From Dictyostelium discoideum (taxonomy: Eukaryota), in contig CM000152.2 in the NCBI GenBank assembly GCA_000004695.1, positions 1,408,001 through 1,472,000 on the forward strand: 64,000 nucleotides of DNA. Reading direction: 5' to 3'. Of the stretch, positions 34,353 through 55,597 are shown piece after piece; within the stretch, counting starts at the first letter, position 1; each line of letters starts with the position of its first letter. The position numbers and the translations under genes are program-made. Under the pieces are notes generated by a model. It made no database searches. It saw nothing but the letters and a program-made list of their open reading frames with translations, and was not told the origin of the DNA.

Positions 34353-35385
34353 ATGAAGGTATGATTATATCCACATATTTTATTCATTTAATTATTTATA
34401 TAAAGTTGTCAATCTTTATCAATCTTTATCAATTCAGATAGATCGTTAGTTAAATAAGAGACATATGGTGGATAATGATGAAAGATATGCAACCAATACA
34501 CACACGCACACATACACAAACTACATGAGTAGAGAGAAGAGTAACTAACAATTATAATTTTTAGCTTAACATTGCTTACCCAGTCAACGGATCCCAAAAA
34601 AAGATCAACATTGAAGACAAGAACAAAGTTCGTTGCTTCATGGAAAAGAGAATTGGCCAAGAAGTTGAAGGTTTGTGTTTATTTTTAAATTTTATATAGG
34701 TTAGGGGTGGAATTATTTGTTTATTGATTTTTAGGTAAAATTAGAAGGATGTAATATTAATTTATAAATTTCAAAATAAATTATAGCCACTACTTTAGGT
34801 GATGAATTCAAAGGTTACGTTTTCAAGATCACTGGTGGAAATGATACTGAAGGTTTCCCAATGATGCAAGGTGTTGGTGCCCCAACTAGAGTTCGTTTAT
34901 TATTAGATGGTCGTTCAGGTTGTTTCAAACCAAGCCGTGATGGTGAAAGAAAGAGAAAATCAGTTCGTGGTTGTATCGTTGCTGAAGATATCGCCTCTTT
35001 ACAATTAATCATTGTCAAGAAAGGTGATGCTGAAATTCCAGGCCTCACTGATGTCTCATTCCCAGCCTCAAAAGGTCCAAAGAGAGCCTCAAACATTAGA
35101 AAACTCTTCAAATTATCAAAAGACGAAGATGTCCGTTCTTTCGTCATCCGTCGTGAATTACCAGCCACCGACAAAAGAAAAGCTAAATCAAAAGCACCAA
35201 AGATCCAACGTTTAGTTACCCCAACCACCGTTGCCCGTAGAAAGGCTCTCCGTGCTAAAAAAGCTGCTCGTCACACTAAAGCCAGCAATGAAGCCGCCGA
35301 ATACGCTAAACTCGTTGCCCAAAGACAACAAGCTAAAGCCAAGAGATCCGTCAAAGTTTCAAGCAAAAAAGTTGTTGCCAAGTAA
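34353..35385 (+). CDS. rps6: 40S ribosomal protein S6 (eS6); 3 exons with a 6-nt first exon
   Basis: CDS is join(34353..34358,34565..34670,34787..35385). Exon 1 is ATGAAG followed by GTATGA. Exon 2 encodes [35 protein letters not shown]. Exon 3 encodes [30 protein letters not shown]...RVRLLL...[13 protein letters not shown]...LVIVKKG...PGLTD...[27 protein letters not shown]...[10 protein letters not shown]. This is colinear with human RPS6. Confidence 0.85.
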
Positions 35386-40551: not shown

Positions 40552-42485
40552 TTATTTTATTATTTTCAAATTAAATAAATTTGTTAAAATAAATAAAAGT
40601 TGGTTATATGGTTGTTGGATAGTTGATGATAATGAAGATAATGTTTGATTATTTGTTATAATTGTTGAAATTTGATTTATATGAAGTTGATTTAAATGAT
40701 TAATATTTCCAAGATTTTGAAAATAGTCATTTAAAAAATCACACACAATTAAAATGAATGTTTCATCACTATCAATTCCATCATTTTCTTCATTAATAAT
40801 TTGAATTGGTTTTAGAAGATTCTGTTGTTGGTAATTAATAATTACATTTAAAATGATTGATAATGTAAAAGGATTTTTTATAATTGAATTTAATAATGGT
40901 TGTTTTGTAATCATTGATGCTGAAGATTTATCAAAATATAAATTTGAAAATAAATAAATAAATTCTCTTAATAATATTCCATTTTCATTTTGATCCGTAT
41001 TTGATAAGAATCTATCAATAAATTTATTCTCTATAATTATAATTTGATTGATTTCATTTAATTGATTTGAATATGCTGTTAAATTTGATAACAAATACAT
41101 TGATTCATTTAATAAACCTTGATTAATGAAATCATTATTATTATTATTGTTTTCATGATTATTAATATCTTCATTTAATAATATATTATTTATAATAATA
41201 GATATAATTTCTTTAATTACATTATTATTATTATTACTATTTTCATTTTGTATGACTTGAGTGAAAAGAATTGGTTCTAAAACTAACCAACCTAAAATTC
41301 TTATACATGGTGATAATAGTATTGGATTTTCAATATGGTTCATTATTATAAAGTTCATAATAGTTTTAAATATACTATTATCGATAGTTAAAAATTTAAT
41401 TGTTTCAGGTTTAATACTGGATATATTAACTAAAAAATCATTTAATAACCAAAGTAAGTGATATAAAATTTCAATTTCTATGAAATTTTCATTTTGTTTT
41501 TCTTGTTCTTGTTGTTGAGGTTGTTTAATTTTATTATTTAATCTATTATTTCTAAAATTAATTTGATCATTTAATTGTAAAAGTATATTACTATTATTAT
41601 TATTATTATTTTGATTGGTAAAAAATTTTATTAAAATTGAAGGGGATGGTAGAGGTTGAATTAATAAACTTGATAATGTAAAACAAGTCGTAATAGTAAG
41701 TGATGGTACCCTTGAAGATAATAAAGTAACTAAAGGTGGTAGTATACCTTGATGTATTAATAAATCTCTATACTCTTTTGAATCTAATGAAATATTTCCT
41801 AAGGCCCATGCACATTGATCTTGTAATGTACTATTATTACTTGATAAATGATTAATTAAAAACGGTGTACTATTAATAATAGATTTAGTATATTCTGATC
41901 CTGCTATGTTTGTTATACACCATGCTGCTTCTAACTGATTTCCATCATCCATTGGGTCATTTAACATCTTTAATAAAAAATCAATAAATAAATTATTACT
42001 ACTTTTATTATCATTATTATTATTATTATTATTATTATTTTGTTCATTAAAATTAACTAATAATTCAATTGCTATATTTAAATTATTTGATGATAATAGA
42101 TTTCTTAAACTGACTAATGTTTGTTTTTTTTGGTAATTTGAATATTTTCTAAAATATTGCTGTTGTAATTTCTAAAATAATAAACTCAAAAATAAAAAAA
42201 AAATGATATTAATTAGCTATTATATTAGGAACTAAATTAATAGTAAGAATTTAAACTTACAATTTGACCATGTAACTTTTTTAATTCATTTTTAATATTA
42301 TCTGTAATATCATCTTTGAGCTGTTGAATATGTTCTTCATTTTGTTTTTGTATTTTTTGACGTTTTTCAACTATAATTTGATTTTTTAAAATTTGTCGAA
42401 TAAAATCTTGTTTTTCTTTTCTTTTTTCTTTATACTCGTTTGTTGTAGTTGTTTTTCTGTATTCACTATTTCTATTGTTATTCAT
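40552..42485 (-). CDS. armadillo-repeat protein (importin-alpha-like ARM repeats); 2 exons
   Basis: CDS is complement join(40552..42171,42261..42485). The intron 42172-42260 has a GTAAGT donor and TTTTAG acceptor. The ARM signatures are EAAWCITNIAGSEYTKSII and DQCAWALGNISLDSKEYRDLLIHQGILPPLVTLL. Exon 1 is basic (EYKEKRKEKQDFIRQILKNQIIVEKRQKIQKQ), reminiscent of an IBB-like segment. Confidence 0.55.
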
Positions 42486-48173: not shown

Positions 48174-49264
48174 TTAACCCTCGAAAGCTCAATTCAAAAA
48201 ATCAATAAAAAGGTTTTTTTTTTTTATTATTTTTTTTTTTAAGTGATTGATCATTTTGTTGGTGTTGGATTGCAATGATAATATTATTTAATTCTACTAA
48301 AAATTTACATTATATATTTTAATGATATTTTGGAATGATTGTAAAAAATTCAGTGTGCGTGGTTGTATTTTTTATAAAAATTCCCACATTTTCACTGTTG
48401 CGCTATTTTCATTTTTAATTTCATTGAAATAGAAAAAAAAAATATAGTTTAATGTAATATCTTATCCTACACCTCAATAACAATATATTTAATAAAAAAA
48501 ATTTTGAAATGGAAAAAAAAAAAAACAAAAAGTTGAACAACAAATTTCAACAAATTTTGACAACATGAATTCTGATAGGATGAAGACGATGAAGGTCACT
48601 TTGATTTATTATCTCATTCAATTCAAGAAGAAGAAGATAGTTTAATTAATGAAAGAAATAGGATGTTTTACTATTATTATAGAATGTGGTGGTTCAAACA
48701 ATTAAAGATCCAACAACAGAGGAGGATTATAAATCAAATTCAATGGAAAGAATGAATTCAGAACCTATTAAACTTTCTATTGTGTTGGTGAGTTATCGTA
48801 TGAACATGGGTGCTTGCGACCGCCAAGACCAAAGAATAAAAAAAGAATTTTATTCTGGTCATAATAAAAAGTGGTATTTAACACTGTTTTGGTATATCAT
48901 AGAATGTTATATCGTAAATAGCTTTGTGGTTCACAAAAATTATAACAAATATAGCCTATCCTATAGAGAATTTCGTAAAACTATTTTGGAAGATTTGAAT
49001 GGTCACCAAACCCTTAGAAACTACGCTCCAAGTTCAACTTTTTCAATTTTTTCCACTTTTTTGCAGATTTTTCAAAGAAAAAATAATGAAAAAAAATAAT
49101 AAAAAAAAAATTAATAAATATAAATAAATATTCATTTTAATTACCAAACAATCTAATTATTATTTTTATTTGTAGTTTTTTAAAAAAAACCGTTAAAAAA
49201 CTTTATTGATTTTTTCTTATTTTCAATAATTTTTTTTTTTTTGAATTGAGCTTTCGAGGGTTAA
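48174..49264. mobile_element. internally deleted piggyBac-superfamily DNA transposon (non-autonomous), with TTAA target-site duplications
   Basis: The left end reads TTAA-CCCTCGAAAGCTCAATTCAAAAAA (48174-48201). The right end reads TTTTTTGAATTGAGCTTTCGAGGG-TTAA (49237-49264). This gives a perfect 24-bp TIR starting CCCTCGAAAG (cf. piggyBac CCCTAGAAAG) with flanking TTAA on both sides. The internal ORF has the transposase C-terminal motif. Internal GC content is well above the local background. Confidence 0.65.
48686..49099 (+). pseudogene. piggyBac-type transposase C-terminal fragment (DDE_Tnp_1_7-like)
   Basis: SYRMNMGACDRQDQRIKKEFYSGHNKKWYLTLFWYIIECYIVNSFVVHKNY matches the conserved piggyBac transposase block Y-x-MGGVD-x-x-DQ...KKWY...F...D-x-A-x-VNS. 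Only about 137 aa are present, and upstream frames are broken, consistent with an internal deletion. Confidence 0.55.
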
Positions 49265-49268
49265 AATG

Positions 49269-49302
<34 letters not shown>

Positions 49303-49350
49303 ATTGGTAAACATAATCAATACAAAAAAAAAAAGAAAAAAAATAGAAAA

Positions 49351-51600
49351 ATGGAACTATATTATAATAAAAATATATTAAATAGAGATATAGAAAGAAA
49401 TTTAACAGAAAAAGAACTTGAAGATTATTTTAATGAAGGTTTATTATATATTATAACTAAAGATTATTATGAAATTACAAATGATGAAATTAAACAAATA
49501 GAAATTATTTCAAATAATAAATTTTCAATAAAAGAAAATGAAAAAGAAATTTTAAAATTAATATTAAAAAATAGAAATTCAAATTGTTTTAAATTTTATT
49601 TTGAAAAATTTGGATTCACTGATGAATTTGATATTGAAAAGAATGGAATAATTATTGATTATATATTTTGGAATTTAAATATAAAAGGTTTAAATAAAAT
49701 AATTGAAAAAGGTTTTTTAAAAAAAGTTTCATTATCAACAATGGGTGAAATTAATTTATCAAATGATTCGATTGAATTTTTAGAATTATTTCTTTCACAA
49801 AAAAAAGTGGTACCAATTAATAATAATATAGATAAATGGTTTAAAGATATTTTTTCAAAAATTATTATAAAGGCAAAATTAGAAAATGACTATACTGGTT
49901 TAAATAAATTTCAAAAAATAATTTCAAACACTGATTCTCTATCAAATAGTTATAAAAGAGATATTATTTCCAATTATCAATCATTACACTTAATTGATGA
50001 TTTTAATATTTTTAAATGGTTTTATCAATTATTTTTACAATTTGAATTTAAAAAACCACCAAATCATTCATTTATAATTAATTCAAGGGATCAGGTTGAT
50101 TTTTTAATTGAAAAAGTATATAAAGAATTTGATGATATAAATTTCAGAATTAATTTTGAAAATTATGAATTGGTAAATTATTTCATTGAAAAAGGAAAAC
50201 AAGTTGGAAAAGATTTCACACAATATCAAACAGATCTATTATCATCTCTTTTTGATAGATCTCTTGAAAAATATGATATTGAAACTTTAAAAATAATTTC
50301 ATCACTTGGTTTAAAATTTAGATCTGATTCTCTACTAAAATTCAATGAACCTTTATCAAAAATTCAAATAATAGAATTAATTAATTTTTTAAATTCAATT
50401 GAATTTAATTGTTTTAAAAAACCAATTTTTTATTCACTTTTTTATAATTTAATCAACCTTTGTAAAAATAATGGTTTAACTAGTTTAGATGTTAAAATTA
50501 ATTTCAATTGTATACCCAATGATTCTTTAACAATTTTCATAACAGCTTTGACCTATAGTGATACTGTTTTAGAGTTTATTTTAAATAGTAAATTCACTTT
50601 ATATTTAAAAAATTTTGAAAAAGAAATAACCCGAAACCCAATTCGTAATCATGCATGTTATAAAGGTATTATCGATCATCATTTATTATATGAAAATAAT
50701 ATTAAACTTTTAATTTCAAAGTTCAAACCAAATGAATTAATTTATTTTTCAAATGTTATCAATTCATTATATTTAAACCTTTTATTTTCAACTCAATTAA
50801 ATCATAATAAATCAATGAGTGAAGTTGGTAATAACTTTTTAAAAGAGAATATAAACAATCTTGAAAAATTGTTTATTTTAAATGGTATAGAAATCAATGT
50901 TACACTATCTCATGTAACACGTTGGTTAATGTTAAAATCAAAATCCTTTAATGCATATTTCCAAAAATTTAATTCTTTTCTTGAAAATAAAGAATTATGT
51001 AATGAAATGGTAACCCTATTTTCATTCAATTCAATTTTAAATTCAGAAACCTCTGAATTATTCTCAAAAATTAGAAAATTATTTTTTAAATATAAATCAA
51101 AAAATTTTAAAGAAAATTTAGAATTTCTATTACATTATAAGTATTATGATTTAGTTATCGAACAAATTATACAATATGAAAAAAAATCAAAAAGGTCATC
51201 ATTTTTAGGAACTATGGCTACAATAATGCCGTCATCATTACCAATTGAAGAATTTCAAAAAATACAACTTGAAACAATTTGTAATAATATTCCTCGCAGT
51301 GAATTTATTAGTAAGTTAATTGACCTTTCAATAAAATTTGATAGATTTGATATTTTTAAATACCTTTTATCATCTCATGATAATCAAAATTTATTATTTG
51401 ACCATTTTCCCATTTTAGATAAATTAAAAATTGAATTCTTGGAATTCTTTTTAATTTATAAAAATGATTTATTTGTCAAACTTGTGGAAACTCATTTACC
51501 CTATAATTTTTCAAAATTAAAACAAAATGAAATTTGTGTTAATCTATTATCAAAATATTTACCATCACATTATCAAATGAAAGAATTTTTCAATAAATAA
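49351..51600 (+). CDS. hypothetical 749-aa Lys/Ile/Leu/Asn-rich helical-repeat protein
   Basis: A single ATG ORF with no recognisable catalytic motifs. Composition and architecture are similar to the 27464..29785 product. Confidence 0.4.
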   Translation: MELYYNKNILNRDIERNLTEKELEDYFNEGLLYIITKDYYEITNDEIKQIEIISNNKFSIKENEKEILKLILKNRNSNCFKFYFEKFGFTDEFDIEKNGIIIDYIFWNLNIKGLNKIIEKGFLKKVSLSTMGEINLSNDSIEFLELFLSQKKVVPINNNIDKWFKDIFSKIIIKAKLENDYTGLNKFQKIISNTDSLSNSYKRDIISNYQSLHLIDDFNIFKWFYQLFLQFEFKKPPNHSFIINSRDQVDFLIEKVYKEFDDINFRINFENYELVNYFIEKGKQVGKDFTQYQTDLLSSLFDRSLEKYDIETLKIISSLGLKFRSDSLLKFNEPLSKIQIIELINFLNSIEFNCFKKPIFYSLFYNLINLCKNNGLTSLDVKINFNCIPNDSLTIFITALTYSDTVLEFILNSKFTLYLKNFEKEITRNPIRNHACYKGIIDHHLLYENNIKLLISKFKPNELIYFSNVINSLYLNLLFSTQLNHNKSMSEVGNNFLKENINNLEKLFILNGIEINVTLSHVTRWLMLKSKSFNAYFQKFNSFLENKELCNEMVTLFSFNSILNSETSELFSKIRKLFFKYKSKNFKENLEFLLHYKYYDLVIEQIIQYEKKSKRSSFLGTMATIMPSSLPIEEFQKIQLETICNNIPRSEFISKLIDLSIKFDRFDIFKYLLSSHDNQNLLFDHFPILDKLKIEFLEFFLIYKNDLFVKLVETHLPYNFSKLKQNEICVNLLSKYLPSHYQMKEFFNK

Positions 51601-51748: not shown

Positions 51749-55597
<3,849 letters not shown>

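Follow-up and report, generated by a model that had tools for sequence, protein, structure and literature searches.

Introduction

The piggyBat element of Myotis lucifugus is known as an autonomous transposon accompanied by shorter deletion derivatives, which have kept their ends and are moved in trans. The terminal inverted repeats (TIRs) of the piggyBac superfamily have C...G ends, begin with the six nucleotides C[C/A/T][C/A/T][T/G/A][T/A/G][T/G/A] and typically measure 12-19 bp, and almost all transposases of piggyBac-like elements (PBLEs) carry a C-terminal cysteine-rich domain that most of them use for end binding (PMC5381638). In the 2017 survey of the superfamily Entamoeba invadens was the sole amoebozoan, and Dictyostelium was not listed (PMC5381638). 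The DNA transposons reviewed for Dictyostelium discoideum are Tdd-4/5, DDT-A/B/S and thug-S/T, with transposases that resemble no known ones (PMC5633606), and a 2026 preprint on D. giganteum reported piggyBac-like fragments in that species and described piggyBac as 'not reported in D. discoideum' (10.64898/2026.03.01.708701). Here we analyze a 64-kb stretch of the D. discoideum AX4 genome (positions 1,408,001 to 1,472,000 of contig CM000152.2; hereafter, the window) that carries a short TTAA-flanked element immediately upstream of the gene DDB_G0278977. We are highly confident that this element is a non-autonomous, internally deleted member of a resident D. discoideum family of the piggyBac superfamily. 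The autonomous form of the family would be ~2.3 kb long, with 24-nt TIRs (18-nt specific core) and one gene encoding a ~556-aa transposase with three catalytic aspartates (DDD). An internally deleted piggyBac-like transposon had been proposed at this locus in an initial annotation, made from the letters of the window, and this central reading is now backed by a Pfam match, empty sites, further TTAA-flanked copies and a near-full-length transposase.

Results

Ends and target site of the element

The 24-mer CCCTCGAAAGCTCAATTCAAAAAA was found twice in the window, in inverted orientation, where no match is expected by chance (shuffled sequence, up to 3 mismatches tolerated), and a TTAA directly adjoins both copies, as the initial annotation had described. 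The element delimited in this way is 1083 bp long, or 1091 bp counting both TTAAs (Table 1), and its terminus reads CCCTCG...CGAGGG. The inverted identity of the two arms is limited to the ends (37 nt at 92%). As it stops by ~37 nt, the ends are a pair of short TIRs and not a segmental inverted duplication, a configuration that had been named beforehand as one that would undermine the proposal. Each 24-nt TIR of the window element consists of the 18-nt core and an A-run, and no further TIR-like terminus was detected elsewhere in the window within 2 mismatches. There was nothing special about the DNA hairpin at the left end of the element (z = -0.06), Rfam gave no match inside the element, and the metagenome contigs scanned for the TIR yielded no match.

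The element has the same orientation as DDB_G0278977, whose 749-aa open reading frame (ORF) is 100% identical to XP_641882.1 of D. discoideum AX4, and it interrupts a bidirectional intergenic region of ~560-590 bp between this gene and a G8-domain gene. In the independent, chromosome-level assembly of an AX4-like strain (GCA_054883475.1; locus L009), which is 99.84% identical over 4.5 kb, the 1091-bp element, TTAAs included, is present at the same site with 100% identity, and it is therefore no assembly artefact. A comparison with other strains, suggested together with the initial proposal, revealed an unoccupied single TTAA at the orthologous site in three related genomes, the loci of which were fetched via the orthologues of DDB_G0278977. 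Two are D. discoideum strains (L005, GCA_054859385.1, and L006, GCA_054859355.1) and the third is D. cf. discoideum (L007, GCA_054859205.1), and both flanks of the element align in all of them. The L006 site, ...AAATTTTTAAAATGAAAAA..., matches the AX4 sequence exactly once the element and one TTAA are taken out. These empty sites with a single TTAA establish a genuine TTAA-duplicating insertion, the integration signature of piggyBac. As the site is vacant in the more distant D. cf. discoideum too, the simplest reading is that the insertion occurred in the AX4 lineage.

A transposase remnant and its near-intact counterpart

The 137-aa ORF inside the element matches Pfam PF13843 (DDE_Tnp_1_7) with 26.9 bits (E=3.7e-6), above the curated cutoff of 22.4 bits and over profile positions 288-349 of 349 only. 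MGACDRQDQ, the third catalytic motif, and the helix KKWY...VNS are both retained in it, in agreement with the C-terminal piggyBac signature seen there at the outset. As the other two of the three catalytic motifs were lost, the window copy is catalytically dead. An acidic peptide, DEDDEGHFDLLSHSIQEEEDSLINE, lies in a frame other than that of the 137-aa ORF. The suggestion that it stems from the transposase N-terminus held up, as the acidic stretch matches residues ~25-50 of the near-intact transposase described below, and it belongs to an N-terminal remnant that is broken twice, by a change in the length of an A-run and by a 1-nt deletion (GATAG-GATG). The N-terminal two-thirds of the protein had been thought to be gone; a large loss is indeed evident, and its location had to be revised, as it is the middle two-thirds (codons ~61-420 of 556) that are absent and the first ~60 codons that are kept, with frameshifts. 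The description of the remnant as GC-rich did not hold, for its GC content of 0.30 lies within the range of the neighbouring host genes (0.19-0.30; 64-kb window, 0.22).

The near-intact counterpart was found as a 530-aa protein, P0014, of the D. discoideum wild strain GCA_054859355.1. Two word-index homology searches had missed it, and it was recovered only by an exhaustive profile search, with a profile from a two-sequence union alignment in which 274 positions of the protein P0004 were retained; a five-sequence protein alignment was dropped because it would lose the central DDE columns. The locus of P0014, L008 (contig JBTAPG010000035.1), holds a ~2.27-kb copy of the element. The annotated model (ACTFIW_011222) excises a 79-nt GC...AG 'intron' (L008 6379-6457). 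When L008 is read directly, PIEIFNFFFF appears in one frame and SAIEDIIINQTLIYIDQK in the adjoining one, and the two together make up the N-terminal motif conserved in the piggyBac domain; the removal of one T from, or the addition of two to, a 12-T run (L008 6435-6446) yields a single ORF of 556/557 codons with no other stop. In the repaired ORF the Pfam coverage widens from 36-349 to 2-349 of 349, with 173.6 bits. As read-through recovers both the conserved motif and the Pfam coverage, we rejected the intron and took the lesion for a homopolymer frameshift, whether a real one or an error of sequencing or assembly.

Compared with solved structures, P0014 matched piggyBat (9c0f) with E=4.7e-22, residues 132-491 against 123-472, and T. 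ni piggyBac (6x67) with E=1e-12. Its catalytic motifs IDEDIV, FTDNYF and CDRQDQ are all in register with those of piggyBat and piggyBac, where the DDD triad is D268, D346 and D447 in T. ni numbering, and its N-terminus is acidic, like the remnant in the window. The L008 copy is itself immobilised, having lost its right TIR and carrying A in place of C at nucleotide 1 of the left one. No annotated protein of AX4 or of the AX4-like genome (ACTFIT) lies within 90% identity of P0014, which forms a cluster of a single member, and from this lack of an annotated equivalent we infer that AX4 has no source of transposase.

Origin and mobilisation of the deleted form

Apart from internal deletions the window element is collinear with L008, with 95.0% identity at element positions 60-513 and 96.2% at 514-1069. 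The gap between the two blocks corresponds to 1080 bp of L008 (6180 to 7260), or transposase codons ~61-420; what remains of the gene is the first ~60 codons, which hold the two frameshifts, and the last 137 codons. L002 shares with the window element both this junction and the private 1-nt deletion (GATAG-GATG), although it lies between unrelated flanks, in one genome with the window-type copy at L009. The presence of one deletion and one frameshift at two loci indicates that the deleted form has transposed at least once and was therefore mobilised in trans, as the intact TIRs had led the initial annotation to expect. A similarity between the right flank of the window element and the left flank of L002 (73% over 178 nt of poly-A) was considered as a possible duplication and rejected, being of low complexity and inconsistent in orientation. 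The window copy and L002 differ by 11 substitutions in 793 aligned nt (1.4%). Set against a synonymous divergence (dS) of 0.07-0.08 in the host gene between strains, this would place the transposition of the deleted form well after the split of the AX4 and empty-site lineages.

We propose that a copy of the element lost these 1080 bp and kept both ends, probably via abortive gap repair or end-joining at an ATG microhomology. Transposase acting in trans would then have moved the deleted form into TTAA sites by cut and paste. One such event would have brought it, in the AX4 lineage, into the promoter region shared by the G8-domain gene and DDB_G0278977, with duplication of the TTAA. The AX4 copy would now be stranded even though its ends are intact, and these ends would presumably still be recognised.

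Table 1. Features of the window element, of its host locus and of related copies.
Feature	Position or genome	Strand	Remarks
Left TTAA target-site duplication	48174..48177		Read directly; single TTAA at the orthologous empty sites L005, L006 and L007
Left TIR, CCCTCGAAAGCTCAATTCAAAAAA	48178..48201	+	18-nt core kept across the family; homologous left ends in L002, L003, L004 and L008
Left subterminal motif, AAAAATCAATAAA	48197..48209	+	Inverted partner of 49202-49214
Second small 5' subterminal deletion, approximate	48227..48232	+	~100-108 nt of L008 5617-5724, also in L002, missing
Transposase N-terminus remnant, ~codons 1-60, including acidic DEDDEGHFDLLSHSIQEEE	48510..48686	+	Aligns with residues 1-60 of P0014/P0001
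137-aa ORF, transposase C-terminal remnant	48686..49099	+	Pfam; 96.4% nucleotide identity to the L008 ORF
1080-bp deletion junction	48686..48687	+	TATAGAATG / TGG / TGGTTCA; ATG microhomology, short filler
3' untranslated and subterminal region	49100..49236	+	Right subterminal motif at 49202-49214 (-); conserved in L001, L002, L003, L004 and L008
Right TIR	49237..49260	-	Perfect reverse complement of the left TIR
Right TTAA target-site duplication	49261..49264		
Host gene DDB_G0278977	49351..51600	+	Context, outside the element; start codon 86 nt downstream of the right TTAA
Copy L002	GCA_054883475.1 (AX4-like), beside a G6PD gene		Left TIR with 1 mismatch, at TTAA; right end truncated
Copy L001	GCA_054859355.1		Right TIR at TTAA; left part inverted
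Copies L003 and L004	D. cf. discoideum		3.05 and 2.36 kb; both ends at TTAA

Other copies of the family

Used as protein queries, the remnant and a composite of family fragments matched Dictyostelium proteins only, and further copies were recovered by fetching the loci of these proteins (Table 1). A TTAA abuts all seven of the preserved TIR termini at the other loci, a count that leaves out the right ends of L002 and L008 and the left end of L001, which are truncated, lost or rearranged. The TIR sequences of these copies are CCCTCAAAAG on the left and CCTCGAAAG on the right; among the copies compared only the window copy has perfect TIRs at both ends. A 199-aa ORF in L004 reaches 64.5 bits against DDE_Tnp_1_7 and matches the solved T. 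ni piggyBac transposase directly. The deletion in L001 (reference 710 to 1775) is independent of that in the window, and deletion derivatives have therefore arisen repeatedly in the family.

A 13-nt motif, AAAAATCAATAAA, lies 19 nt from the left tip of the window element and 46 nt from the right tip, in inverted orientation and with asymmetric spacing. The window holds four copies of it against 0.39 expected, two of the four being the inverted pair inside the element. The variable base of this motif is the same at both ends in each sublineage, TCAATAAA in the window copy and L002 and TTAATAAA in L008 and L001, and on this single covariation we regard the motif as a putative transposase-binding site. 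Since no other TIR-like terminus was present in the window, the two exact copies outside the element (34720-34732 (-) and 41976-41988 (+)) are probably unrelated AT-rich matches.

L003 and L004 were at first sight two insertions. This was rejected, because their flanks are homologous on both sides (L003 940-1239 and 4290-4590; L004 10073-10372 and 12733-13030), and they evidently represent one insertion that was later duplicated along with its surrounding repeat. This host repeat sits in retrotransposon-rich regions, with RVT_1, integrase and tyrosine-recombinase ORFs nearby, and the right flank includes a short tandem array with a unit of ~13 nt, TATTATCAAGTGC. Both copies also contain a minus-strand ORF, MIFVEKLKIRFENKTLHFF... 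(L003 2604-2771 and 3071-3205 (-); L004 11463-11630 (-)), which resembles, inverted, CVEKLKKKFENKKPIEIF in the plus-strand coding sequence of the L008 transposase and suggests that they carry internal inverted duplications or rearrangements. In L001 the 5' part of the element, equivalent to positions 66-277 of the window element, is inverted (9495-9701, near an EFL1-like gene), and no left TIR was seen there; it may be either an internal inversion or a rearranged insertion.

Is the family still active?

Several observations weigh against parts of our interpretation. At least one end is damaged in every copy except that in the window, and none of the copies examined combines intact ends with an intact ORF, so that activity at the present day is no more than a possibility. 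The C-terminal cysteine-rich domain has left no trace in P0014: its last 57 residues contain no cysteine, and only ~150 AT-rich nt separate the stop codon from the end of the element in L008, which leaves no room for such a domain. It is a typical feature of PBLEs rather than a strictly defining one. Both the copy number in AX4 and the absence of an autonomous copy there were deduced from annotated proteins only. Finally, as piggyBac excises precisely, and as the empty alleles are compatible with an excision that restores one TTAA, it is formally possible that the element was precisely excised in the other strains instead of never having been inserted there.

These points bear on the most serious alternative, namely continuing activity of the family in certain D. 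discoideum strains, with the frameshift of L008 a homopolymer sequencing error and the 556-aa transposase a functional enzyme able to mobilise end-intact copies such as that in the window. The single lesion in 556 codons falls within the 12-T run, the Pfam domain is complete with all catalytic motifs present, the 1.4% substitutions between the window copy and L002 are few against the host dS between strains, and the TIRs and target-site duplication of the window copy are perfect. On the other side stand the damage to both ends of L008, the lack of any copy with intact ORF and ends, the missing cysteine-rich domain and the lack of an annotated full-length protein in the AX4-like genome. Taken together, we consider activity a possibility, though a doubtful one. 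A more specific version, in which the piggyBac system is live or one homopolymer error away from live, strain-polymorphic, and relies on a transposase of GCA_054859355.1 that mobilises end-intact copies such as the AX4 element without a cysteine-rich domain, appears slightly less probable still. If this version were true, such a system would be a source of transposon activation in strain crosses, and it would mean that piggyBac ends can be recognised by a transposase lacking the cysteine-rich domain, which is of mechanistic interest. A working transposase would also offer a native TTAA-targeting mutagenesis system for this AT-rich genome.

Age and origin of the family

The initial annotation had taken the element to be young or horizontally acquired. 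The transposase ORFs of L008 and L004 (D. cf. discoideum) differ with a dS of 0.89 and a ratio of nonsynonymous to synonymous divergence (dN/dS) of 0.15 (198 codons), whereas the host gene has a dS of 0.12 in the same species pair. These values argue that the family is old, that it evolved for long as a functional transposase under purifying selection, and that its sublineages would be older than the host split. Between the AX4 remnant and L008 there are 7 synonymous and 8 non-synonymous differences (dS 0.10).

A recent horizontal acquisition could account for the patchy distribution among strains and the polymorphic insertion; piggyBac elements are known to transfer horizontally (PMC5381638), and the excess of transposon over host dS could in principle reflect separate introductions. 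However, the GC content of the transposase ORF (0.26), like that of the remnant, falls within the host coding range, and the dN/dS over a long branch speaks for long functional evolution. There is also no plausible donor, as the top non-dictyostelid matches (insects, fish and metagenomic proteins) reach ~60-80 bits against 403 bits for P0014 within Dictyostelium. Moreover, both D. discoideum and D. cf. discoideum harbour the family, and for D. giganteum there is a report of piggyBac-like fragments. On the strength of the host-like GC and the divergence data, we therefore set aside horizontal acquisition and the anomalous base composition on which it had leaned, and regard a recent transfer as improbable.

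Relation to the host gene

Even less probable, in our view, is that the host has co-opted the remnant, which would then serve DDB_G0278977 as a new promoter or 5' exon, or would live on as a domesticated protein of piggyBac descent. Such a role would fit the position of the element 86 nt upstream of the start codon and in the same orientation, as well as the annotation of GCA_054883475.1, which merges the remnant ORF and the gene into one model of 863 aa (P0012). Against it, the gene is intact in the three related genomes without the insertion, two of the three catalytic motifs are absent from the remnant and its N-terminus is frameshifted, and the curated AX4 model of 749 aa lacks the extension; the fused model may be a predictor artefact. 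Nor does the family look like a domesticated gene: the insertion is polymorphic, with intact TIRs and a broken ORF, and L008 stands in a single-member cluster, is frameshifted and has lost its ends. As an observation in its own right, the P0012 model (ACTFIT_010305) spans L009 4001-7031, equivalent to window positions ~48565-51600, and is either an artefact of the predictor or a hint that transcription continues from the element into the gene, by read-through or in a chimeric transcript.

Last, that the configuration is a product of chance or of a segmental inverted duplication in AT-rich DNA can be dismissed, for although low-complexity inverted matches abound in this extremely AT-rich genome (619 inverted pairs in 3.5 kb), no match of the 24-mer is expected, the same termini recur in copies at other loci, the empty sites are exact and the inverted identity ends after 24-37 nt.

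Surroundings of the element

DDB_G0278977 in the assemblies labelled D. discoideum differs from AX4 with protein identities of 92-94% and a dS of 0.07-0.08, only a little lower than that of D. cf. discoideum (dS 0.12), and the divergence within the named species D. discoideum is substantial. Downstream of the gene, the ORFs 51749-53398 (-) and 53555-55597 (-) contain very long poly-Asn/poly-Gln tracts, typical of D. discoideum proteins. Exact-sequence look-ups of two ORFs close to the element, 51749-53398 among them, gave no record, and the locus was recognised by homology and from a cluster listing. The sole tRNA or Rfam match in the window is a tRNA-Lys(UUU) at 23187-23259 (-); no full-length tRNA-targeted TRE retrotransposon was evident beside it, with no ORF of at least 250 aa between ~19.4 and 25 kb.

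Discussion

We return to our preferred reading, an internally deleted and non-autonomous member of a resident piggyBac-like family. Full-text literature searches returned no report of piggyBac in D. discoideum, Repbase, Dfam and the 2001 repeat catalogue of Glockner et al. lying outside this comparison, and we provisionally regard the family as uncatalogued for this species. It would make up a fourth group of DNA transposons in D. discoideum, the first that is clearly classifiable, and would extend the host range of piggyBac within Amoebozoa. This comes as a small surprise, since D. discoideum AX4 is among the most intensively annotated protist genomes. The insertion 86 nt from the start of DDB_G0278977 also amounts to a natural promoter-disruption polymorphism between strains.

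Assignment to the superfamily follows from the TTAA duplication, the terminal sequence and the DDE_Tnp_1_7 domain, with the DDD triad present at the family level. With respect to the TIR motif of the superfamily, positions 1-4 and 6 fit and position 5 is a C, outside the motif, and a length of 24 nt is at the long end of the range. The element terminus CCCTCGAAAG is identical at 9 of 10 positions to CCCTAGAAAG, which we take to be the terminus of piggyBac. The founding element, T. ni piggyBac (IFP2; 6x67/6x68), shares with the family the TTAA duplication and a DDD transposase whose N-terminus is acidic and which contains a DDE_Tnp_1_7 domain. The subterminal inverted motifs are asymmetric in both, with spacers of 3 and 31 bp in piggyBac (PMC5381638) and distances of 19 and 46 nt from the tips here. 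The two differ in that the window copy is 1.08 kb long and has no functional transposase, whereas T. ni piggyBac measures 2.48 kb; in that the TIRs are 24 rather than 13 nt long; and in that the family transposase has 556 aa and no cysteine-rich C-terminal domain, compared with 594 aa in T. ni, the protein similarity being distant.

Closer to home, the piggyBac-like element of Entamoeba invadens belongs to the same superfamily and comes from the same eukaryotic supergroup, and it has the same architecture of TTAA and TIRs. Tdd, DDT and thug live in the same host, are likewise low-copy class II elements and include short non-autonomous forms (DDT-S and thug); thug-S has been described as a repeat bearing a microRNA hairpin. 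The family reported here has a clear piggyBac domain in Pfam and, judging by the descriptions of Tdd, DDT and thug, would be distinct from them. Among solved structures, the best match to the family transposase is piggyBat. Unlike piggyBat, the family inhabits an amoebozoan rather than a mammal, its transposase has no cysteine-rich domain, and none of its copies was found to join an intact ORF to intact ends. The family nevertheless resembles piggyBat in its biology, with deletion derivatives alongside an autonomous form, and the window element is, in kind, a standard non-autonomous deletion derivative of a piggyBac-like element.

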